Virus record (IMG/VR): IMGVR_UViG_3300045988_112819
Direction: 5' to 3' (one strand)
Source of the DNA: a virus
DNA: 64,000 nucleotides
The notes under the pieces are model-generated. The model had not been told where the DNA came from. It was given only the letters and a program-made list of their open reading frames with translations, and ran no database searches. A program made the position numbers and the translations under genes. This document shows, in pieces, positions 9,747-61,341 of this stretch (position 1 is the first letter of the stretch; each line of letters starts with the position of its first letter).

Positions 9747-10571
9747 TTAAGCCCCGACTCGAATAGTAGGTACATTCCGCATACTTGCGGAAAGCTGACG
9801 CTGAAAGTCTGTCATAGGAGGAAATTCCTTCCTATTCTCATACAGGGCCTTTCTCATGGGCTTATGTTGGCGCATACAGTACCACATGATTTCCGCCTCA
9901 ATGAGAACATCTTCAAGCCCCGTATGACTTTCCTCAAAATCGGTATTTCCAGAGATAAACCGCCACACGATTTCCGCAGTCTTACGGGGAACGCCATTGG
10001 CTTGGATATATCCATTTTCCTGACAGAATTTCTTATAAGTGGGCATATTGCAGATAACATCTTGTGTCATCTTCATAATATCCCAAATTTCCACACTGTC
10101 AAACGGGAACCAGTAGCGAAACTTAGAGCAAGTGACCCATCGTTGAGTGACCCGCAGAGCGTTATCGTCAAACCGGGCATTATAAGCAGCCACTTCCTTA
10201 ATTCCGTATCGCTCGATAGTATCAAGCATAGCCTGACGGATTTCATAAGTAGTAGCCATCTTGCGAGTGCCGGCCCGCAATTCCTCAACATAGCGGGGGA
10301 TTTTCCAATTATAATAGGCCGTCCGCATTAAGTCTCGCTCGTCATTGAAAATGTCCCGATTTACAAAACTTGCAGTTTCGTAAATATTGCCCTTGGTATC
10401 TACTACAGCCCAACCGCAGTCATATACCAGTACATTTGACATATCCATGCGGACACGCTCAGGAGTAATAATCTCCCCATCCTCTCCGATTTCAGCGGGA
10501 ACGGTTTCGGTTAGTGTGTTGGCGGTTTCAGTGTCAACCACCAGCACATAATGTCTGCGCTTATCAATCAT
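9747..10571 (-). CDS. DEDDh-family (DnaQ-like) 3'-5' exonuclease (274 aa)
   Basis: Exo I VVDTET, Exo II AYNARFDDNAL, Exo III HTGLEDVLIEAEI. Confidence 0.65.
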   Translation of the reverse strand: MIDKRRHYVLVVDTETANTLTETVPAEIGEDGEIITPERVRMDMSNVLVYDCGWAVVDTKGNIYETASFVNRDIFNDERDLMRTAYYNWKIPRYVEELRAGTRKMATTYEIRQAMLDTIERYGIKEVAAYNARFDDNALRVTQRWVTCSKFRYWFPFDSVEIWDIMKMTQDVICNMPTYKKFCQENGYIQANGVPRKTAEIVWRFISGNTDFEESHTGLEDVLIEAEIMWYCMRQHKPMRKALYENRKEFPPMTDFQRQLSASMRNVPTIRVGA

Positions 10572-17303: not shown

Positions 17304-17336
17304 AAAAAGAGAGAAGAACTCACTTCTTCTCTCCGC
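17304..17336. terminator. intrinsic terminator (agagagaagaa ... ttcttctctc)
   Basis: seen directly. Confidence 0.6.
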
Positions 17337-17463
17337 ATTTACACTTCTTTTTTAAATTATATATAATATGATCTTCTACTTTGTAAATTGGATATAATTC
17401 TCCACAGACTGCGCATATATTATAATAATGCTTGCCGTCAAACCATACTAATACTTTATCCAT
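17320..17463 (-). CDS. small Cys-rich zinc-ribbon-like protein (47 aa)
   Basis: CxxC and CxC pairs; overlaps the upstream gene end. Confidence 0.35.
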   Translation of the reverse strand: MDKVLVWFDGKHYYNICAVCGELYPIYKVEDHIIYNLKKKCKCGEKK

Positions 17464-17698
17464 CGTCGGTTGCCTCAAAACTAAAAATCAAATTATATCC
17501 ATCCTCAGTTTCTATCGTTTCATATCCTTTTAAGATATATCCATCCTCTAGTTTAATATTAATCGCATCAGATCTCCACATTGTAGGAATATACTCTAGC
17601 CTTGGATAACGATTGTTCTCCTCCACGCAAGCAGTCAACAATAGTAAAATCAAAACTATATTAATTATAAAGCTGATACTTCTTCCCAATTTTGTCAA
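17456..17698 (-). CDS. lipoprotein (signal peptide MTKLGRSISFIINIVLILLLLTAC with LTAC lipobox) from a TTG start
   Basis: GGAGG RBS 8 nt before TTG; ORF track begins at an upstream ATG (17728) overlapping pth2. Confidence 0.5.
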   Translation of the reverse strand: MTKLGRSISFIINIVLILLLLTACVEENNRYPRLEYIPTMWRSDAINIKLEDGYILKGYETIETEDGYNLIFSFEATDDG

Positions 17699-18098
17699 TT
17701 TCTTCCGCCTCCATTGGCCTAAATCCAATACACGTCAAAGTCCCTTCCGGGCCTTCGCGTTCTAATTCTGTTCTACAAGCATCATAGATAAGCCAATAAT
17801 CCTTATTCTCTTCCCATCCTAATTCTTCTGCTATCTTAACAGCCTTTAACAAATCATTCTTATTCTTCGCTCTACAAACTACTTTGGTCTCCGCTTCCGC
17901 TATCCAATTATGGAATAAGTCTCTATCGAGGCTTATTCCTATATGATATATAAGACCGTCTCTTTCTTTAACAACTTCTTTACTTCCCCAATATAACTTT
18001 TCCAAAAGAAAAGCAATAGAAGCATGGGAAACTTGTGCGGCAAGTTTCCCTGGAGACATATTTAAGTCTCGCCTCGCAATAATTAATTGCTTGAACAT
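17661..18098 (-). CDS. peptidyl-tRNA hydrolase, PTH2 family (145 aa)
   Basis: MSPGKLAAQVSHAS and C-terminal TLTCIGFRP match Pth2. Confidence 0.65.
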   Translation of the reverse strand: MFKQLIIARRDLNMSPGKLAAQVSHASIAFLLEKLYWGSKEVVKERDGLIYHIGISLDRDLFHNWIAEAETKVVCRAKNKNDLLKAVKIAEELGWEENKDYWLIYDACRTELEREGPEGTLTCIGFRPMEAEEIDKIGKKYQLYN

Positions 18099-18850
18099 TT
18101 TTCCAAAACCTCCAAGAAAATTCTAAAATTGCGGGAATTGCGGTTTGGAATCGCAAAATAGATATTTGGAATATTATAATTGCGGGCTGCGTTTACGAGC
18201 AAGATGGCGACCGTTGATGGATCTTGCATAAAAACACCACAGCCCCAGGCTCCCGCGATTAAATTTTCCACTCCCTTAGCCTCGGCAATTCGATACATAA
18301 AATTAATTCTCTCTTCCATTATCCTATTGTTTAGAGAAAGAGGAACTTGCTGATAAGTATGTGCTGTTCTATAATTAGGAGAAGCACAAGTAATTACATC
18401 AGCTAATTTTATACTATCGTCTTTTTCAAAGACTACATCAGGAGTATAGATAGCTCTATCAAGATATAGGGCTCGATTCAGTCTCTGTCTATTCCATGCG
18501 TAATAAGTATCATCAAAAGCAAGAAGAATAGGGTAAAGGTTGCTTTCGTGACACAATGCCTCTTCTTGTGCGGAGCTACCTCCAAGGAAATAACCACCTG
18601 GATGTTTATAGCTTGCATAATTTAAGATCGCAGTCTTGCTCCAATCGGTTAAACCGAATAGACAGGATACGCTATCTTGGTCTTTAAGATAAAAGGTATT
18701 ATGGTGGGTTTCTCGCGGTTTTTGCGGAAAAGGAAGATTGGGGCCAAAAATTTCAGAGTTTATAATTGCGCGATCTGTATCTTCCTTGAGTCTCACTTTA
18801 ATGTCTGCGTAATGCGATTGCGCGTGTTGTTTGAGCTCTTCTCGTTTCAT
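18083..18850 (-). CDS. PARG-like macrodomain protein (DUF2263 / TIGR02452), 255 aa
   Basis: HPGGYFLGGSSAQEE (GGG-x6-8-QEE signature) and GAWGCGVFMQDP; AAAGGAAAC RBS at MKREEL. Confidence 0.65.
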   Translation of the reverse strand: MKREELKQHAQSHYADIKVRLKEDTDRAIINSEIFGPNLPFPQKPRETHHNTFYLKDQDSVSCLFGLTDWSKTAILNYASYKHPGGYFLGGSSAQEEALCHESNLYPILLAFDDTYYAWNRQRLNRALYLDRAIYTPDVVFEKDDSIKLADVITCASPNYRTAHTYQQVPLSLNNRIMEERINFMYRIAEAKGVENLIAGAWGCGVFMQDPSTVAILLVNAARNYNIPNIYFAIPNRNSRNFRIFLEVLEKCSSN

Positions 18851-18893: not shown

Positions 18894-19082
18894 TTAATTA
18901 TCCCAATCTTCAAATAAAGTGTGTAAACTATTTGTTTCCGCCGCCAATCTCTTTAAATATTCTTTAAGAATTTTATTTTCTTTAACTTTAATTGCATAAT
19001 CGCAAGTATTGTCGCAGTCTGGTGTGTACTACCGACCGAATCTATTATAACAATAATCAATACAAGGACACATTTTACTCAT
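18894..19082 (-). CDS. Cys-rich small protein (62 aa), 1 in-frame TAG
   Basis: ATG overlaps the upstream gene end. Confidence 0.35.
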
Positions 19083-19428
19083 ATTTACACCCATTCATTC
19101 TACAGTCTATTGTGCATTGCCCTGACGCTCCTTCACAAGGAATAGCATCAGGATAGTATTCAAAATAAGACGAGGTTAATAGAACTTCATATCCAAGTTC
19201 CCGCAGTATTCTTTCTGCGACATATCTATCTCTTAATTTAATCCATTCTTCTCTATTTACTTTTGTTTCTTCATATATTTTTCGAGATTCTTCCATATCT
19301 ATTGTTATGATACCATCGGTGTTAGTTTTAAATACTGAAGGACTTTGTGTATGATAAAATTTTCGAAAGGGATTGTTAATATGAAGAACTTCTTCAGCAT
19401 ATTTGTCAAAATCTCCCGAAAATTTCAT
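19075..19428 (-). CDS. hypothetical protein (117 aa), start overlapping the folD stop (TAATG)
   Basis: ORF track frame; coupled start. Confidence 0.5.
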   Translation of the reverse strand: MKFSGDFDKYAEEVLHINNPFRKFYHTQSPSVFKTNTDGIITIDMEESRKIYEETKVNREEWIKLRDRYVAERILRELGYEVLLTSSYFEYYPDAIPCEGASGQCTIDCRMNGCKYE

Positions 19429-20213
19429 TATCTTTGCGCCTGTTTCGCTAACTATAAACAATTTTTCATCAACCCCAATCTTGTTAATAGACCTACTCCT
19501 CCGAGGACAGGAGTTGACCATACATTATTTCTTTTTGCGATTTCATCAATTTCTACAAAATCACCAAGAATAATTCCTGCTTCATTTCTGCGAATACCAA
19601 CATCTATAACAATAGCGTTAGGACAGGCTTCTCTTGTTAAGCTAAATTTTCCTACCGCAGAGACAATTAAATCTGCTTGCCTTGTTAAATAGAGTTTTGT
19701 ATTTATATCTGTTTTGCTATGACATACTGATACGGTCATATTTCTATCCAGTAGAGCTTTAGCCATTGGCTTTCCTACAATATCGCTTCTTCCCAAAACA
19801 ACAGCAGATTTACCTTCGTAGTTAAAACCACATTCATCCAAATAGTCTATAATTCCTCTTACTGTTGCTGGAGTAATATTGCTCATAGGATTTAAACCAT
19901 CCGCATCTTTAGAGATAGGTATTTGACTATAATTGAAATCAATTCCATTTGCTACTGGCATTTGAACTATTACCGCATCCCAGTCTTTTGCATGGCCTAA
20001 GAGTAATCTTAACTCTACTGAACTATTCGCTCTAAACACTTCTGCTTCCCAACCAAGAGCATTAAAGTCTTTTATTTTATTACGAATATAAATTTGATTC
20101 GCGAGATCCTAGGCTGTTGCGTCGATAATCATGAGTGATGGAACATTACCACTAATCTCCCGCAATTTGTTTACCTATTGTTGAAAATATTCTTTTATAT
20201 TAATCTATTGCAT
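19428..20213 (-). CDS. folD: methylenetetrahydrofolate dehydrogenase/cyclohydrolase FolD (261 aa), 4 in-frame TAG as sense
   Basis: VIVQMPV...KDADGLNP, GKSAVVLGRSDIVGKPMA, VIDVGI, TPVLGGVGLLT match FolD; GGAGG RBS; ORF-track fragment ends at a TAG. Confidence 0.75.
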
Positions 20214-20532
20214 CTGGATCAAGCCTCCAAGGGTCACTAGTATCGTAATCAATCATTTCATAGAAAGATATTTCATTTTCATTAACTTCTAATACCTAGT
20301 GAGGAATACACTATACTTCATAGTCAAAATCTTTATTAATATGGTAAGAAGTATATATATGAATAGCAATAGGTCTAGGATCATTAACTCCCTAAATATC
20401 CCATAAACTTATTGCTTTATTTTGGAAGATTTCCTAAGCATACTATGGAGATATAGCAATACTGATTATTAAGATATTAAAATAATACTATGCTTTTTCC
20501 GGTAAATCTAAATATGGTTCGTCAAAGAACAT
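20200..20532 (-). CDS. hypothetical protein (110 aa) with 7 in-frame TAG, translationally coupled to folD (its 3' end contains the folD RBS and ATG)
   Basis: open only with TAG as sense; AGGAG RBS; TGcTATAAT extended -10 upstream. Confidence 0.4.
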
Positions 20533-20603
20533 TGGCAAACAAATCTCCTATCTTATTTTTATAATTATATTATAGCATTTTTAAATAAATTAATCAAATA
20601 AGA

Positions 20604-20632
20604 TTTGACAATCTAGTTTTTTTTTGTTATTA
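20604..20632 (+). promoter_or_regulatory. promoter TTGACA-17-TATTAT for the plus-strand late operon
   Basis: consensus; divergent from the minus-strand promoter. Confidence 0.6.
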
Positions 20633-20657
20633 TATGAGTATAAAAGGAGATGACAGT

Positions 20658-36996: not shown

Positions 36997-37021
36997 TGGG
37001 TGATAAAGGAGGAAAAGGATT

Positions 37022-40000
37022 GTGGCTAATAATAGAAGATTAAATTATTAGATTGGGTTTGATGTTGATACTGCTGAACTTTACAGAGCAGTAAACGAGG
37101 CAGTTCAATCTTTAAATAAAATCAGTGCCGGTTCTAAAGTTACAGCAGAATTGCGACAAGCTTCTTAGTCTGCGCTAGAGTTATCTACTTATATGCATTA
37201 GGCATTTAATCAAGGGACTGGAAAGTTAGATTTAGTAGCTTTTGAAAATAGTTTAAAATCTAGCGGAAGAATTCTTAAAGATTATGCCAACTCGTTAATT
37301 TCGATTGGTACCGAGGGGCAAAAGGCTTTTTTAAATGTAGCAACAGCGATTCAAAAAGCGGAGCTTCCAGCATTGCGCACTGGCAAAATATTCGATTAGT
37401 TATGGATTACTATGAAAAATACTATGAGATGGCAGATTACCTCCACCGCGTTAAATAGTTTTGTGGGAACCATAGAATCAGCTTATGGGTATGCACAAGA
37501 TCTAAATGAATCATTAACAAATATTCGTATAGTTACTGAAAACTCTGCGGAAGACATGGCTAAATTTGCTCAATAGGCAAATGAAGCAGCAAAAGCATTA
37601 AGTACAACTACTGTTGAATATAGTGATGCTGCTTTGATTTATTATCAATAGGGTCTTACTGAATAGGAAGTTTTAGATAGAACTGAAACTACTATTAAAA
37701 TGGCTAATGCCGCAGGAATTAGTGCATAGACCGCTTCGGATCAGCTGACCGCAGTTTGGAACAACTTCTATGATGGAAGTAAGAGTCTTGAATATTATGC
37801 TGATGTAATGGTGCGTTTAGGCGCCGATACAGCGTCTAGCTCTGATGAAATTTCAGAAGGTATCCAACAATTTGCCTCTGTAGCAGATACAGTTGGATTA
37901 AGTTACGAATATGCTGCTTCTGCTCTTGCTACTGTCACTGCTACGACACGTGAGTCTGCTAATACAGTAGGTACAGCATTTAGAACTTTATTTGCTCGTA
38001 TCCAAGGCTTAAATCTTGGAGAAACTCTCGATGATGGCACTACATTAAATAAATATTCTAAAGCTCTTGAAAAAGTGGGTATTGATATTTTTGATGTTAA
38101 TGGTGAGATTAAAACTATGGATACCTTACTTGATGAAATGGGTTCAAAATGGGAGACCTTATCTAATGACTAGTAGATTGCTTTGGCTTAGACCGTAGCC
38201 GGAGTTCGCCAATATACTCGTCTTATTGCACTTATGGATAATTGGGATTTCTTTTAGGAGAATTTAGCTAGTGCTTATGGAGCAGAGGGATCTCTTTAGG
38301 AACAGGCAGATATTTATGCTGAATCTTGGGAAGCTGCTAGAGATAGAGTAAAAGCATCTGCTGAGGATATTTATGATAGTGTCATAAATCCAGATTTGTA
38401 TATAAATGCAGATAATGTCTTAACTCCATTTTTATCTGGTATTGCAGACGCCATTGATGCAATGGGAGGGTTAAATGGTATTTTAGCTAGTACCGCTTTG
38501 TTGATTAATGGGATTTATGGAAATAAGATTGCTGAATCAATGCGTTCTATGGTGGCTAATATAAAAGTTCTATCTGGATTAGAGTAGAATAGAGCAAGAA
38601 ATTTGTAGGCATCAGCGGCTGAGATAGCAACTCAATTAGGCTTAACAAACTCTATGTCTTAGGCTGAAAAAAATCTTTTTAATATTATGGTTGACTAGGC
38701 TAATATATAGGGCCAAATAAATAGTAACTACGACGCGATGGATGCTAATGGTCGTAGATTAATTTAGACAGAACAGTTAAAATTAAGTATTTTGCAAGAT
38801 TAGTTAAAGACATATTCTTAGTAGTAGATTTAGTCTAGGGAAAATGTATTAAATCTTAGAGATACTATTTATTTTAATATAGGAATAAAAGATGGCTGGC
38901 AAGAAGAAGTTAAAGCAGAAATAAATAAATTTAATAGTAGAAATAAAAGTAATCAAATTTAGTTAAATATAAGAGCTAATAGTAACCTTGATAAAATTTA
39001 TAATGATGTTACTACTTAGTTAACTAGTTTAATTTAGCAATCTACAAAACTTGATACAGTGTATCAAGAATTTAAAAAACTTGAAAGCGCTGGAACTGCG
39101 ACTAGAGACAGCCTTCGTAATTTATTATCTAGTATTACGGGAAAAGAACATAATTATGCTTAGATTGAATGGCTGACTTAGCAATTAGAGGGGTTAAAAA
39201 ATTAGTCTCAAAATGCAAAATTGCAAATTCGTGAACTTGGGACTATTTTATAGACTATGGGAGCCGATCCAAGAGTAGTTACTTCTTATATTAATGAATT
39301 AACAAAATTGGAGTCTGTTACTGCAAGAACAACTGAACAAGAGGCTCGATATTAGGAATTGTTAGCGAAGTTCCCTAGTGTAATTACAAAAGCATTAATA
39401 CCAACGAGAGATTGGGCTACAATATTGGTTTAGGTTGGAAGTTCTCTTTCTAGTTTAACTATGATTATGAATGCTTTTTAGAGCATTGGAAGAATTTTTT
39501 CTGATGAAGATATGACTTCAACTGAAAGAATTGTAGCTTTGTTTACTTCTCTTGGTATGTTACTACCCTCTATTATTTCTGTTTATAAAACTTTAAATAT
39601 GTTAACTACTGCTCATGCTGTTGCAGCAGCAGCGGACGCCGCGGCAACATCAGTAGAGGCTTTAGCGACAGAATAGCTTGCTATGGCGAAGCAGAAAGCC
39701 GTTATGGCTTCCGGCATCTTAACTGCTGCAATTATGGTAGCAATAATAGCGATTACTGCAATAACAAGTGCTATAAAAGCATAGCATGAAGCAACCTTGG
39801 CTGCTGCTTAGGCCTCTATTGATGCGGCAAATGCAAAAAAAGAAGAAGCACAAGCGAATAGAGAGTTAATTCAATCTACTCAAAATGCCTTATCTACTTA
39901 TCAAGAAACTGGGGATGGAAAAGAAGAGTTAGATGATTTAACTCGTTAGTTGGCTGAAGCGTATGATTTAGAAGGCAGTGCATTAGCTAGACTAAGTGGA

Positions 40001-43000
40001 TAGTATGAAGATTATAATAGTGTTTTAAAAGCTGCTCAAGAAGCTCAAAGAAGAGAACTTTAGGAAACTTTGTAGTCCCAAGAAGAAGCGTTACGTGCGA
40101 ATGAAACTCTCATTCTTGAAACCGCGAGAGAGGGCGTGGGCCACGTATATTTTGGTGGAAATTATGAGGGGTCTTTTACTGGTTTTAATGATTTTTGGAA
40201 TGGCACCGAAGAAGATACTGCATCTAATATTCTTCTCAATAATGTGGACGCTTTATATAGTAGTTGGAATGACAATGTAATTGGTGGAAGAAGAAACTTA
40301 GCTTTTTCTATAGACCCAAATAATACAGAAGAATTAATTAATTTTTATGATCAATTAAATAATGCTATTAATTTGATGAATAATAGCATGACTGTTTCGG
40401 AAAGAGGAGCATCTGGACTTTACAATGCTGCTGTTGAGTGGCGAGATAAAATGGAAGAGGTTGTCACTCAATATAAAGAAACTAAAGAGAGTATAGATGC
40501 TATTCGGGTATAGCTTGGAGAGTTTAATAATTAGACTATTACCGATGATCAAGTATCAAGTTTAGCGTAGTATAAAATTTGGGTTAACGAAGTTACAGAG
40601 GCGCTCACTTCTGCTGGATATGAAGGCGAAGAATTAAACGATATAATCAATGATTTAGTATCTACTTCTCTGAATCCTGATATTAGTGGCTTTAAAGATA
40701 TTTATGACGCAATTTTAGAGGTTGAAGAATTAGTCAATGATGAAGAATTAAAAAGTAATCTTGAATCTATTTTTACAGATGAAAATTATGATACTTCTGT
40801 ATTAAATTTATTAAATTGGGGTGCTTTAACATAGGAGACTTTTTAGGATGCCTATGACAGTGCTAAAAAATATACTGATGCTATTTCCGAAGTTGAAAAC
40901 GCAACAGAATCTTTAACTACTGCACAATCTGTCTTAGAAACTCTTGGAGATGGAGATTTAGATCGAGAAGGATTAGAATCACTTTCTAAAACTGTTGATT
41001 GGGGAAATCAAGAAAAAGGAATTATTGATTTTAATTAGTTCCTTGCTATGACTTTGGTTGAACAATAGAGTTATTTATAGAGGATTATAAATGAGTCCTA
41101 TTAGGCTGTCAATAATGGATTAATAGATTAGATTAGTGAAGCAAAAAAGAGAATAACTGAGCAATAGGATATTTTAAATCAATATAGCGATTCTGAATTA
41201 GAACGTGCAGAAAAAGTTGTTTATGCTTGGGAACAAGTTCGAGAAGCGTATAATGATTATCAAGATAGCTTAAATAGCGGAGAAGAATTTAATCTTGATA
41301 ATTATACGATTGATTGGGATTTGTTAGGTGAAAATTTTGATTGGGAATCTTTTAAAACCGAAACTGCGGATAACGTAGTTAGTGCATTTGAGTATGGGAC
41401 AAAAGAAGCTCAAGATAAAATTGATACTGTAACTTTAGCAGAGTAGCTAATTAGTAGTTTATAGGATGATATAGATTCTAGCACAGCTTAGTTACAAATA
41501 AATGCAGAATTAAATTTTTAGAATCAATTAGATTAGATTGAAAATTCCGTTGATGGAATTGTAAGTGTATTCGATGCTATTTCTGATGGAGTAAGCTAGA
41601 CTACCAATGAAGCTGGAGAACAAGTTTGGAGTTTTAGTAGAGAAGCAGCTAAGGCTATTGAATCTATCTATCCAGGTTTTATAGCTAACGCGGAATTATT
41701 AAGGGATGGTACATTTGCTTTAACAGATGAGATGTATCAAGCATTTTATAATAGTTCTTAGGGGCAATTAGCTGTTGATGCTGATACCAAATCTAATATG
41801 CTTCAAAATCTTATTTCTCTTTTAGAGGCTAAACGAGGAGAGGCTGAAGCTTCGCTTAAGATCGCTGATCAGCTAGCTTCTGGAGAATTAACTATAAACG
41901 AATTATCAGATGAGCAGAAGAGAACTTTATTAGCGGGATATGTAAATGCTTAGAATCTTGCTAATGGAGAAATGTTAGATGATTAGGTCAATAGTTTAAC
42001 CGCACAAGATACAAATTAGTAGACTTTATGGACTAATGTTAGTGAGTATTCTGCTTAGGGCGCGCAGAACATGAGTACTAATGTATAGTTAAATACTCAA
42101 AATGTTCTTGCTAATCTTGAAAAAATTAGAGATGCGGCATATGCTACTGGAATTCAAGTATCTCAAATAGGAACTGATAATGTTACTAAGCAAGATTTTG
42201 ATACTTCTGCTGTTTCTTTTGATAGTTCGGCTGCAACAACAATAGATACGAGTAACGCTGATGATTTCTTAAATTCTTTAACTGCAAATTTAGATGTAGA
42301 ACCTGTAACCGCAGACGATTTAAATATTTATGGTGATGCTAGTGAGGCACTTGAAGCTAAGCAATCTTAGGCAGTTGGAGAAGCGCTAAGGGCCATTTAT
42401 TAGGGGAGTATTGATGGGTATAATGAGGCTATAGCAGCAGCAAAAATAGCCTAGAGCAAATTATTAGATTCTATTGATGGAGCTATAGAAGGAGTAAAGG
42501 GAAGTTCAAGTGGCGGAGATAATGAAGGCACTAAGTATGACGAAGAAGATGAAAAGACTCTAAAGGATATTGAAGATAGATACCATGAAATAACTCGCGA
42601 AATTGAGAATTAGAACGATTTATTAGATGATATTGGAAATAATATAGATAGAGCCTATGGAGCCAATAAACTTCAAGCATACTAGAGAGAACTTCAAGAA
42701 TTGGAGAAATAGCAAGCTAATTATAACAAACTACTTAATGAAGCTGAAACTTATCTTACAAAAGACTAGGCAGATCTTCAAGGGTTGTTTAATAATTCTC
42801 TTATTTTTGATGAAAATGGAGAAATTGAAGATTATCAAAGTGTTCTTCAATCTATAATAGATGATTATAATAATAATTTCTTGGCAGATTATAATGCTTT
42901 TTTAGTTACCTTTAGTAATCTTACTAAAGATGAATAGGAAGCTAGATAGGCAGAATATGATAGTTGGCAGTTACAAAAGGAAGCTGCTGATGAATTATTC

Positions 43001-45748
43001 CAAGCTCGTTAGGATGCTCTCGCCCAATATGAAGAAACTCTTGACAAAATTCAAGAAGTAAAGGATGAATAGGAAGAATTAGAAAGAAATATTGCAGATA
43101 ATAGATTGAACTAGATTGAATATAAACTTGAAGTTGTAATAGAAATAAAAGATGCTAAAGATGCTGTTCGTGAATTAACTAAAAAGATCGCAGAATCATT
43201 TGGTGACGAATTAACTCATGGTATTGAAGTCGCTCATATTGATGAAAATAGTGTGAACGAAAATATAAAAATAATCAAGGATTATGAAGAAACACTTAAA
43301 AGTTATCAAGAAGAATTGGCTAACGCAACGGATGCGACTGATATTGATGGAATTATAAGTAAAATATCTGATTTATAGGGTAAAATAATTTCTACCGCAG
43401 AAGCTCTACTTGATTGGGTAGAGGGTCTTGAAGAAATGTTGCCAAATGCATTAGACGCTGCATCTGAAAGATTCGCTGAATTTACTGATCAACTTGATCA
43501 TAATGAATCAGTTCTTGGACTTATAAAAGAATTGTATACACTTTAGGGGGTTACATATAAAACCGAAGAAGGATTTGAATAGCTCCAAAAAGTAAGCGAA
43601 GAAACAATGAAAGCTCAAATAGCAAATGCGCAGTTAAATAAATAGTGGTACGACGGCATTAAATAGGAACTTTTAGAAGCCTAGAGTGCGTTAGATGCAT
43701 TAGATGGTGATGAAACAGATCCAGCATATGATGGTTTAAAAGCTAATCGAGATGCATTATTAGAAGAATATAATGAAGCTCAATAGGCGATGTTAAGTTC
43801 CGCGCAAGCCGCTATGGAAACTGCACAAGAGATGTATACTTAGGCTATTGAAAGAGCCGTATACGAATTTGGATAGGCGGTTTCTGGCGGAGTTGGCTTA
43901 GATTTGCTACAAGACAAGTTCGATCATTACATTGAGCAAGAAGATAGATATTTAGATAAAGTAAATGAAGCATATGAAGTATCTTCTTGGTATAATAAAC
44001 TTCAATAGGATATTGATAAAGCCACTAATTCTAAAATGAAAGATTAGTTGAAATAGTTACAAGAAGAAATTGATATTCGTAGAGAGAATAATACTTTATC
44101 TGAATATGATCTAGAAATTCTTGAAGCTAAGTATAATGTTCTTTAGGCTCAGATGGCTCTTGAAGATGCTCAAAATGCAAAGAATCAACTTAGATTAGTA
44201 AGAGATAGTCAAGGCAACTGGAATTATCAATATACCGCAGATGCGAGTTAGATAGCAGATGCGGAATAGAATTTACTTGATGCAGAGAATGAATGGTATA
44301 ACATAGCTAAACAATAGGTTGAAGACGTTACTGGAGAAATTATTTCTACTTGGCAAGAATGTCAGGATAAAATAAAAGAGATTTATTCTGATATGACCTT
44401 GACTGATGAGGAAAGATCTGCCCGCGCGCAAGAAATCTATTCTTATTATACGCAGAAGGTTAAGGATCTAGAGAACGAAAAACAGATCGCTATTTAGGAT
44501 ATGACCGAAGCCGGTAATAAAGCCTTAATTGATATGGCTATTGTTGCGGGAGACGAGGTAAGTGATCTAACTGGAATTACAAGTCAAGAAATTTAGGATA
44601 TTATAGCTAATTCTGGCTCTAGTATTATTGATTTGTTATTATCTGATAATGAATAGATTCAAGATATAGTTGGAAGTAATACAAAACTTATTGATTTATT
44701 TGATAATGTTTTCGCAAAAGATCTTGCTAATATGACTTCTAATGCTGGAAATTTTGAAGATTTTCTATCTAAGGCCATGAACGAAGCAAGCGGAGCGATG
44801 GAAGATTATCAAACTACTGTCTCTGGAGTTGCAGATTAGACTGGAACAAGTCTTGATGATTTAGAAGGTTATCTTGATGATGTTACAACTTCTACAGAGT
44901 TATGTTCTGATGCGGGATCAGAAGCTGTCACTTAGATGTTAGAATAGATAAGCACTATTCAAGATTTAAGTCAAGAATATTTAGATATGGCTGAATCAGT
45001 TAGAGAATATATAAGGGCTCTTGAGGAGGCTGCTAGAGCAGCTGGAAATACAATAGAAAGCGCTGGAGGAATAGATAAAGATGATTTACCTCCCGCTAAT
45101 TCAGATCAATCTTCTGATAATAACTCTAGCAATAGTAATAGCGGATCTTCCAGTGGAGGAACTGGAAGTGGCAATGGAATCCCAGAAGTAGGAGACGAAG
45201 TCATTTATACTGGTGGAACTTATTATCATGATTCTTATGGCACAGATCCAGCAGGTAGACGTGGGCCCGGCAAGAAAGTTAAAATAACTAATATAGCCAA
45301 AGGCAGACCATATCCGATTCATGTATAGTCTAATAATTCTGCATATGGCTGGTTAAAAGAAAGTCAAATAAGCGGATTTGATACAGGGGGTTATACTGGA
45401 GAATTTGATAATGCTAAATTAGCTTTCTTACACGAAAAAGAGTTAGTTTTAAATCAAGAAGATACGAAAAATATTCTCGCGGCGGTTTCTGCTATAAGAG
45501 CTTTTGAACCTAGTTTTATAGCTTCTATAGAGAAAGCGCTTGATGGAAATGCACTATCTATTTCTAATCTTATGGCATCAAGATTAGGATCTAATACTTA
45601 GATTACTCCAGCAGATAACACAGTTGAACCGTATATAAATATTGAGCGAGTTGAGTTCCCAAATGCGACATCTTCTGATGAAATTCAAGATGCTATTCGT
45701 AGTTTAGCTGATGATGCTACTCAATGGGCAAATAGAAGAAAGGGATAA
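37022..45748 (+). CDS. tail tape measure protein, about 2908 aa, GTG start, dozens of in-frame TAG
   Basis: AAAGGAGG RBS; canonical tape-measure segment RLGADTASSSDEISEGIQQFASVADTVGLSYEYAASALA and hydrophobic MASGILTAAIMVAIIAITAI; one frame links ORF-track 37808, 38396, 40136 and 44987; not every codon was checked. Confidence 0.6.
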
Positions 45749-60124: not shown

Positions 60125-61341
60125 TACTTTATTTCAACTCCTTTAAATAATGAACGAAAATAATTGTCCATATCTTGAATTATATAAAAACAAGTTCCTT
60201 TAGAAATATGTGCCCTCCAACCTTGATAGGATTTCTAAATTTCATCTGTTGAAATTTTACCCTCTAACCATAGCGCTTGCATTTTCTTTAACTTTCTGCG
60301 CTAATGAGCCACTTTCTTTTTAAAAGGAATTTGTATTATATGATTAGTGTCTGTGAGATAAAAGTTCCACTTTAAGTATTTTAATGGAGCGTGACGTTTG
60401 CCGTCCGCATGAATAGGAGAGATTCTAGTAATAGTAGTCTTTTTCTTATTCATCTTTAATCCTTGCTTATTTAAGCGAACTTCTATTCTCTTTTCACATT
60501 CGGCTAAGTATTGACTGTCATTGTGGAATAAATATAAATCATCCATATAACGACCATAATACTTAATATGTAACTCTTCTTTGATGAAGTGGTCAATTTC
60601 GTTCAATGCTAGCAATGCGAATAATTGTGATGTTTGACTTCCTAATCCAAGACTTTTATTATCATATTCATAGTATTTGCGGCCAGGCTTAAAATTAGTG
60701 GTACTAATTCTCGTGTATTTGTGCCGTTTACTAATATAATAATCTTTTCCTGGTATGGGAGAGGAATCTTTTGTTAGCTTAAAAGAAAATGTATCTATTA
60801 AATAACAGCATAGTTGATAAATTCTTTTATCTTTTATCAAACGTTTAGCCGCTTTCTTTAAAGATTTATGGTCAATAGAATCAAAATATTTTTGAATATC
60901 AATTCTTAACCCATAAAAATCTTTTCCTAATCCATATTCTCTATGAGCTTGTTGAAGATGTTTCTTTACTCTTTTTAAAGCAAAGTCTATTCCTTTTCCT
61001 CTTAAAGTAGCACAATTATCGTAGATAAATCTAGGAGTTAATTCTGGTAATAAAACTTGTTCACATAACGCATTTTGTACCAGTCTGTCGTTGATATGAC
61101 ACGCTCTTATATCTCTTGGTTTGCCTCGTTCGATTATCGAAAAACAACTAAACACAAGCTATTCGTATTCACACGCTCGCAGATCAGCTTCTGTTTTTAA
61201 AATTGTTTCTATCCTATTCTCTTCAAAATTAATTGTACTATCTTTCCATCGAACGTTTCGGCATACCTTATAAGACGCATCATACATAGTGTCAAAACTA
61301 CAAAAACGCTCGAAAGTAGTATCTTGATTTATTTCAGACAT
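60124..61341 (-). CDS. DGR-type reverse transcriptase (405 aa), 3 in-frame TAG
   Basis: INDRLVQNALC and LRGKGIDFA resemble the Bordetella phage Brt segments FKDRLVQHALC and RPDKGTHAG; motif 4 LGLGSQTSQLFALLALNEIDHF (the SQ hallmark of DGR RTs); motif 5 YGRYMDDLYLF; AAGGAG RBS. Confidence 0.8.

Follow-up and report, generated by a model that had tools for sequence, protein, structure and literature searches.

A bacterial-type PARG macrodomain gene overlaps a Pth2-type peptidyl-tRNA hydrolase gene in a recoded gut phage and may help to protect translation and RNA during infection

Why should a phage carry, in two overlapping genes, an enzyme that removes ADP-ribose and an enzyme that cleaves peptidyl-tRNA? 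This question is raised by a stretch of viral DNA of 64,000 nucleotides (IMG/VR record IMGVR_UViG_3300045988_112819; the whole stretch is hereafter called the window), in which a gene for a PARG-like macrodomain protein overlaps a gene for a Pth2-type peptidyl-tRNA hydrolase. An original prediction, made from the letters alone, had read both genes from the sequence and suggested that they form an anti-defence pair. We found both open reading frames (ORFs) at the predicted positions on the minus strand (Table 1), and the identification of both enzymes is confirmed, because hidden Markov model (HMM) matches, predicted folds and catalytic residues support it and only the third glycine of one motif fails. 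We propose, with moderate confidence, that the two genes constitute a compact cassette protecting the translation machinery and RNA during infection.

The translation of the PARG-like gene contains both HPGGYFLGGSSAQEE and GAWGCGVFMQDP. It matches the families TIGR02452 (E=4.7e-49, 167.3 bits against a curated cut-off of 50) and PF10021 (E=1.1e-25, 91.2 bits against 23.5), and by phmmer it retrieved the PARGs DrPARG and TcPARG at E values from 1e-23 to 1e-20, with the QEE and GAWGCGVF motifs aligned. The former lies in a GG-Y-x7-QEE motif at residues 85-97 and the latter forms a loop at residues 200-207; Q95, E96 and E97 are invariant across 80 homologs. When the sequence was compared with the signature GGG-x6-8-QEE, the QEE triplet was found intact at a spacing of seven residues, but the third glycine was replaced by tyrosine, so that of the two catalytic elements named in the original prediction one is complete and the other reads GGY. 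In the phage clade this position is variable (Y/F/Q/N/L/M/G).

The AlphaFold2 (AF2) model of the protein has a pLDDT of 94.8 and N-terminal helices at residues 3-31. By Foldseek, the top 13 matches in the Protein Data Bank (PDB) are all TcPARG or DrPARG structures, with template modelling (TM) scores of 0.74-0.82 (0.82 to 3sig, the T. curvata PARG, and 0.78 to 5zdc), whereas no score much above 0.5 was reached by canonical PARGs or by macrodomains of other kinds. By HMM and fold the protein belongs to the PARG class, not to the TARG1/ALC1-like macrodomains or to NADAR. A search of PHROGs gave no match. A longer version starting at TTG 18913 was rejected because the N-termini of homologs align with the ATG at 18850. 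We concluded that this gene encodes a bacterial-type PARG macrodomain protein with a predicted ADP-ribose-removing activity.

The Pth2 protein starts with MFKQLIIARRDLNMSPGKLAAQVSHAS and also contains MSPGKLAAQVSHAS. It matches PF01981 with E=1.4e-22 and 80.5 bits (cut-off 23) but remains below the NCBIfam equivalog cut-offs (NF003314, 82.7 against 126; TIGR00283, 65.5 against 82), and it is therefore a member of the PF01981 family rather than a certified equivalog. By phmmer it matches archaeal Pth2 structures, and its AF2 model (pLDDT 92.3) aligns by Foldseek with 1rlk, 3erj, 1xty, 1wn2 and 1q7s at target-normalised TM scores (TMt) of 0.79-0.85. K18, D106, T110 and E111 are invariant across 49 homologs, and when the protein is aligned with archaeal Pth2, K18 falls in the GK motif and D106 in the DAG motif; the catalytic lysine and aspartate of archaeal Pth2 we take to be K18 and D86 in S. 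solfataricus numbering. The PHROGs search returned one unnamed family only. We concluded that the product is a Pth2-type peptidyl-tRNA hydrolase, its activity again being predicted.

As both genes are read from the minus strand, PARG is the upstream gene and Pth2 the downstream one; the overlap described in the original prediction is real, but the order given there was the reverse. The two genes share the stop region of PARG and the start of Pth2, and a GGAGG stands about 10 nt 5' of the Pth2 ATG. From the sequence, translational coupling at this overlap is plausible, and the two proteins are probably co-translated. An overlap of 16 nt is also present in a related phage (L013), and one of 32 nt in two others (L168/L169). 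The phage reads TAG as glutamine, and neither gene contains an in-frame TAG over 400 codons, while the late plus-strand genes have 2.4 TAG per 100 codons, by which about 9.6 would be expected in the pair. Since both genes are TAG-free, they could be translated before TAG suppression is established.

As to function, the PARG-like protein would hydrolyse ADP-ribose held by ribose O-glycosidic or phosphate-end linkages, and its likeliest targets would be ADP-ribose groups that tRNA, or another structured RNA, bears at a 2'-OH or a 5'-phosphate, put there by a host ADP-ribosyltransferase or left in the course of NAD-dependent RNA repair. The Pth2 protein would act on tRNAs that have dropped off stalled ribosomes, freeing them of their peptide or N-acyl-aminoacyl group so that they re-enter the tRNA pool. 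Pth activity is known to detoxify the N-acetyl-aminoacyl-tRNA that GNAT toxins produce. The pair would be expressed ahead of any need for TAG suppression and may keep tRNA and the translation machinery usable.

Published work on the two enzyme families bears on these proposed substrates. Bacterial-type PARGs cut the ribose-ribose O-glycosidic bond of poly(ADP-ribose) (PMC8120803). In a panel of macrodomain, ADP-ribosylhydrolase (ARH) and NADAR enzymes, only bacterial-type PARGs reversed the 2'-OH RNA ADP-ribosylation caused by RhsP2; they also shielded E. coli from RhsP2 and had the highest activity in the panel on 5'-phospho-ADP-ribosyl RNA ends (PMC11833690). ADP-ribosyltransferase toxins that target tRNA exist (PMC13617354), and a part in ribosome rescue has been proposed for phage PTH2, which would recover tRNA from peptidyl-tRNA once translation is jammed by host effectors (PMC7824862). 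Counter-defence and RNA-repair roles have likewise been described for phage Macro, ARH and NADAR domains (PMC7824862, PMC9503650).

The original prediction had given the pair a more specific task, in which the macrodomain reverses DNA ADP-ribosylation by DarT-like toxins and Pth2 clears peptidyl-tRNA stalled at TAG codons. This version can point to the orphan ADP-ribosylhydrolases that phages are reported to carry against DarTG (PMC11825919), and to the observation that all sampled members of the phage family are TAG-recoded and have Pth2. We nevertheless consider it very unlikely. In published tests the base-linked DNA adducts of DarT were reversed by DarG/TARG1-like macrodomains or by NADAR but not by the PARG class (PMC11833690), to which the window protein belongs; RNA is for this reason a likelier substrate than DNA. 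The stalling idea lacks support because Pth2 is not confined to recoded genomes: members of its subfamily are encoded by Enterococcus phages without recoding (PMC10607447), in many phage loci whose ORF coverage under read-through shows no recoding signal, and in the chromosomes of Clostridia, while the recoded relative phAss-1 gave no Pth2 match. Pth2 as a marker that tracks TAG recoding was ruled out by the same analysis of ORF coverage.

To see in what company the two genes occur elsewhere, we looked at unrelated genomes, with a flank of 10 kb per locus; the co-location counts are plain tallies without phylogenetic correction. The neighbours of PARG in 20 unrelated viral clusters (about 2.6 kb on either side) are heterogeneous and include RNA_ligase (2), Metallophos (2), AAA_33, RlaP, SIR2 and CinA. 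In one locus (L170), the gene immediately upstream of PARG encodes a 722-aa Pnkp-Rnl1 fusion, an arrangement like that of DRB0099, the D. radiodurans PARG, which lies within a ligase-PARG-Pnk operon (PMC11833690). Nine unrelated Pth2 clusters have as neighbours HAD_SAK_2 (2), AAA_33 (2), Metallophos (2), RtcB, RNA_lig_T4_1, an ATP-dependent ligase, an ARH ADP-ribosylglycohydrolase, NadR-like and PnuC proteins and a YAcAr SLOG domain. Pth2 stands next to RtcB in L126, between Metallophos and a ligase in L111, and between an ARH gene 3 kb away and a Pnkp-Rnl1 gene in L159. Both genes occur together in an island of a 133 kb phage contig (L058:6615-13064), in the order RlaP, DHH/DHHA1, a 127-aa protein, PARG, DUF4406, Pth2, a 156-aa protein and SIR2; this contig has no other genes in common with the window. 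The island matches the sirtuin-centred NAD-dependent RNA-repair neighbourhoods of Iyer et al. (PMC9503650), and it has the appearance of a cluster for NAD-dependent RNA repair in which PARG and Pth2 are both included.

The subfamily of the window Pth2 (about 50% identity) is also chromosomal in Faecalibacterium, Lacrimispora, Butyrivibrio, Lawsonibacter and Christensenella. In F. prausnitzii UT1 (L201:9998-13829) it belongs to a co-directional run of genes for a low-molecular-weight (LMW) phosphatase, a pentapeptide-repeat protein, Pth2, two unknown proteins, Macro, ARH and a PNP-family phosphorylase. Five Faecalibacterium loci have the Macro-ARH cassette, and in four others it is reduced or missing; further Pth2 loci of this genus are L191, L192, L198 and L206. 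Thus Pth2 recurs near three classes of ADP-ribosylhydrolase (PARG, Macro and ARH), and both genes recur beside RNA-repair enzymes.

Two further observations were made on PARG-bearing phages. In a cluster represented by L054 (with L044, L046, L048, L049, L061, L062 and L072), the ORF coverage of L054 rises from 0.63 to 0.94 with TGA read-through, which suggests TGA recoding. An ARH gene lies about 4 kb upstream of PARG in L044, L048, L054 and L061.

These neighbourhoods also allow a reading in which the PARG-like protein acts not on RNA but on soluble ADP-ribose molecules or on protein ADP-ribosylation, and Pth2 is an unrelated translation helper. The targets might be immune signals or by-products (cyclic or O-acyl ADP-ribose) or modifications made by host or phage ADP-ribosyltransferases. 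Iyer et al. favoured soluble ADP-ribose derivatives as the main targets of phage Macro domains, from genomic contexts (PMC9503650); PARG neighbours elsewhere include SIR2, CinA, DUF4406 and, in L172, a NadR-like kinase (AAA_28), and YpsA/SLOG and DUF488 genes lie close to the pair in L167. The neighbourhood of the pair in the window, however, has no ADP-ribosyltransferase, TIR or SIR2 gene. The characterised bacterial-type PARGs cleave polymeric and RNA-linked ADP-ribose (PMC11833690, PMC8120803), and the recurring link with RNA ligase and Pnkp points to nucleic-acid ends. We regard this reading as improbable.

A stronger form of the protective role would be a two-step rescue, in which an undescribed ADP-ribosyltransferase of gut Clostridia, acting in defence or competition, modifies the ribose 2'-OH of charged or peptidyl tRNA so that it jams the ribosome. 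The nascent chain or acyl group would be released by Pth2 and the ADP-ribose taken off by PARG, giving a usable tRNA. RhsP2 (PMC11833690) and the tRNA-Thr toxin TreThr are precedents as ADP-ribosyltransferases that target RNA or tRNA, and the Faecalibacterium locus with Pth2 and Macro-ARH might be the cellular counterpart. That both enzymes act on the same damaged tRNA in this way seems to us quite unlikely, and the suggestion is offered as speculation.

How firmly the two genes are bound to each other was examined in the phage family of the window, whose members have a common layout and late proteins that are 64-97% identical. We compared the contents of the slot that follows FolD and a 117-aa gene, with PARG identity given relative to the window. 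PARG precedes and overlaps Pth2 in the window clade (identity 96-100%), in L012/L013 (65%) and in L168/L169 (54%). The two are adjacent in the same order in L167 (52%), and three small genes separate them in L174 (46%). The order is swapped to Pth2, lipoprotein and PARG in L026, L099, L100, L101 and L043 (about 44%). The neighbourhood is thus long-lived and tolerant of rearrangement. The co-occurrence that the original prediction had named as a check recurs across the family, but it is not obligate, as some siblings have no PARG or no adjacent Pth2, and neither gene needs the other.

L015 was considered as a natural double loss of PARG and Pth2 and rejected, as it is L013 with many internal deletions and 0 substitutions. 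Several contigs of IMG/VR 3300045988 (L015, L018, L021 and L100) differ from their siblings by numerous internal deletions, both short and long, but by no substitution, and in L100 the deletions create a lipoprotein-PARG fusion. Such a pattern suggests an artefact of assembly or consensus building more than a decay of genes.

Several results weigh against a joint protective role. Within the family, PARG is absent from L095, L097 and L102-L107, where Pth2 and the lipoprotein gene remain, and L172 has PARG (45% identity) with AAA_28 and DUF5662 and no Pth2 within 6 kb. The divergence of PARG and that of Pth2 are uncorrelated over nine lineages (rho 0.12), so that we gave up the idea of their inheritance as a unit. 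A partner within 10 kb is missing from about 18 of the 20 unrelated PARG clusters and from most of the unrelated Pth2 clusters, and GenBank phages have one gene without the other or both far apart (LR756511). Pth2 also overlaps the lipoprotein gene, which is of unrelated function and has a conserved lipobox, so that gene overlap is weak evidence of shared function; taken alone, it is just compact phage gene packing. To these points are added the altered third glycine of the PARG motif, the preference of Iyer et al. for soluble targets, and two negative results: the window and 10 kb on each side of it yielded neither an RNA ligase or RtcB nor a kinase-phosphatase or ADP-ribosyltransferase, and the papers that we found describe no anti-phage system that ADP-ribosylates RNA 2'-OH.

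Many of these points would be accounted for if PARG and Pth2 were independent accessory genes with no common pathway, made neighbours by the variable, tightly packed first stretch of an early leftward operon. The slot itself is variable (PARG before Pth2, Pth2 before PARG, either alone, or three genes between them), and most phages with one gene lack the other nearby. On the other side, the neighbourhood has outlasted rearrangement and deep divergence in the family (PARG 44-55% identity), the pair recurs in the unrelated L058 island, Pth2 lies near analogous, non-homologous ADP-ribosylhydrolases in L159 and Faecalibacterium, and both genes associate independently with RNA-repair enzymes. We consider independence possible but somewhat doubtful, and a protective cassette for translation and RNA remains the reading that we put forward.

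The features around the pair are collected in Table 1. The leftward unit runs from the 110-aa gene through FolD, the 117-aa gene, PARG, Pth2, the lipoprotein ORF and the Cys-rich ORF to the hairpin, which is probably the end of the unit, judged from its sequence. The leftward promoter candidate faces a plus-strand candidate, and by these predicted promoters the pair lies within the first leftward unit beside a divergent promoter region.

Table 1. Positions of the two genes, of the leftward unit that holds them and of other features of the window
Feature	Position	Strand	Length	Remarks
PARG-like macrodomain gene	18083..18850	-	255 aa	ATG at 18850; ORF read from sequence
Pth2-type peptidyl-tRNA hydrolase gene	17661..18098	-	145 aa	ORF read from sequence
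Overlap of PARG stop and Pth2 start	18083..18098	-	16 nt	direct sequence reading
Small lipoprotein-like ORF	17456..17728	-		overlaps 3' end of Pth2; likely start TTG 17698
Cys-rich ORF (CxxC...CxC)	17320..17478	-	52 aa	final gene ahead of the terminator-like hairpin
Terminator-like hairpin and T-run	17308..17334	-		predicted, consensus scan only
Gene between FolD and PARG	19075..19428	-	117 aa	TAG-free; called in L001-L006
FolD-like methylene-THF (tetrahydrofolate) dehydrogenase/cyclohydrolase	19428..20213	-	261 aa	PF02882 E=5.6e-36; 4 in-frame TAG
First gene of leftward unit	20200..20532	-	110 aa	6 in-frame TAG codons
Sigma-70-like promoter candidate, TTGATT-17-TATAAT with TG	20569..20597	-		predicted, consensus scan only
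Facing promoter candidate	20605..20633	+		predicted, consensus scan only
Late ORF, presumably a giant structural protein	37007..45748	+	2,914 codons	101 in-frame TAG
Reverse transcriptase	60301..61155	-	284 aa	RVT_1 E=7e-17
Early protein	9747..10571	-	274 aa	phrog_20187 match

The lipoprotein gene that the original prediction had coupled downstream of the pair is a real ORF. Its lipobox reads LLLTAC in the window and LMLTGC in a second clade (L026 and the L095-L107 clade), where a protein with 45% identity, lipobox included, is encoded directly 3' of Pth2. Family searches of Pfam, NCBIfam and PHROGs gave no match, and the protein possibly serves superinfection exclusion. Metagenome gene callers annotate merely a 41-aa fragment of this ORF. 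The Cys-rich ORF had no match in Pfam, and the 117-aa gene, which is weakly conserved across the phage family, had none in either Pfam or PADLOC. The FolD call matches PF00763 as well as PF02882. PADLOC gave no matches for PARG, Pth2 or their neighbours, and Pfam searches with ten other early genes gave nothing informative.

The phage is about 145 kb in size and common in gut metagenomes; in the collection, 350 indexed blocks contain its Pth2 protein in identical form, on contigs of up to about 145 kb. It is a TAG-recoded siphovirus-like gut phage whose host probably belongs to the Clostridia. A 148,971-bp copy is binned in an Oscillospiraceae metagenome-assembled genome (MAG), and the closest described relatives are the TAG-recoded phAss-1 group and Enterococcus EF1-like phages (PMC10607447); when the 6 kb region around the pair was searched at nucleotide level against GenBank phages, no match was found. 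In the late plus-strand region (20589-58981), long ORFs form only with TAG read-through, and one TAG of FolD aligns with Q in the L026 homolog.

The original prediction had called the pair TAG-free early genes. This holds for PARG and Pth2, and sixteen early leftward genes including them have 0 TAG in 2,736 codons, but the early region is not uniformly TAG-free, because the 110-aa gene and FolD contain in-frame TAG codons (Table 1). Since these first two leftward genes (19428..20532) carry TAG and the next sixteen none, the boundaries of recoding do not cleanly track strand or operon. FolD may be produced only after suppression becomes active.

No tRNA genes were found in the window. Just past its left end (L175:17090-20741) is an array of at least 12 tRNA genes, comprising Ile-tat, three Leu, Asn, Asp, Ala, two Glu, Met, Ser and Thr; no suppressor tRNA was found among them. 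No homolog of ARH, NadR, YpsA or DUF488 was found in the window. In the 10 kb past each end just this array and unannotated small genes were found, and the PARG-Pth2 cassette thus stands alone, with no RNA-repair partner in the window or 10 kb beyond its ends.

Two other genes of the window may be mentioned. The reverse transcriptase gene, close to the right end and surrounded by minus-strand genes with TAG codons, may belong to a diversity-generating retroelement. The 274-aa early protein is conserved in the phage family at 73-96% identity, and PADLOC gave it a weak match of DEDDh exonuclease-like type (E=5e-4).

If the link between PARG and Pth2 is real, RNA or tRNA ADP-ribosylation would be a target-and-repair axis in the conflict between phages and abundant gut Clostridia, and the bacterial-type PARGs would gain a concrete biological setting. 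If it is not, the window shows no more than two accessory enzymes of known kinds that happen to be neighbours in a widespread recoded gut phage. The proximity of Pth2 to PARG, Macro and ARH genes, including those of Faecalibacterium chromosomes, is in our opinion the most useful new comparative-genomic lead.

Compared with known systems, the window PARG has the fold (TM 0.78-0.82), QEE triplet, GAWGCGVF diphosphate loop and size of about 255 aa in common with the PARG of T. curvata (3SIG), D. radiodurans DRB0099 (5ZDA-G) and S. coelicolor SCO0909. It differs from them in being just 23-29% identical, in having GGY instead of GGG, and in being phage-encoded and paired with Pth2. The window Pth2 has the same fold as archaeal Pth2 (1XTY, 1RLK, 3ERJ) and human PTRH2/Bit1 (1Q7S) and keeps the GK...AAQxxHA and DAG/C-x-TE motifs. 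Unlike the archaeal proteins it has two insertions of about 20 and 8 residues, and it belongs to a subfamily common to phages and Clostridia chromosomes, with the Faecalibacterium Pth2 about 50% identical.

Phage-borne removal of ADP-ribose as counter-defence would be shared with the orphan hydrolases reported to act against DarTG (AdfA/NADAR and DarG-like; PMC11825919); these, however, are enzymes of another class, being NADAR or TARG1-like macrodomain proteins, and their substrate has another linkage, base-linked DNA ADP-ribose. The pair also resembles the phage islands for RNA repair, ribosome rescue and NAD/ADP-ribose metabolism, in which PTH2 and Macro/ARH are listed as counter-measures to tRNA attack or as ADP-ribose processing enzymes (PMC7824862, PMC9503650). 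Relatives of both genes sit in such islands with RtcB, Rnl1-Pnkp, RlaP, HAD_SAK_2 and SIR2: each gene separately accompanies ligase and end-healing functions in L170, L126, L111 and L159, and both do so together in L058 (RlaP, DHH, SIR2). The window pair differs from these islands in that no ligase, end-healing enzyme, KptA or sirtuin is found within the 84 kb examined around it. A literature search on PARG in phage counter-defence and ADP-ribosylation found no paper, and the juxtaposition of PARG and Pth2 is absent from the surveys of Iyer, Burroughs and Aravind, PMC9503650 containing neither 'PTH' nor 'PARG'. The statement of the original prediction that the pairing is not a described module is therefore correct, within the literature searched, for the two-gene cassette but not for its components and their roles. 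The novelty is modest: the PARG-Pth2 cassette appears to be new, and it joins two components whose counter-defence and RNA-repair roles in phages were already known.

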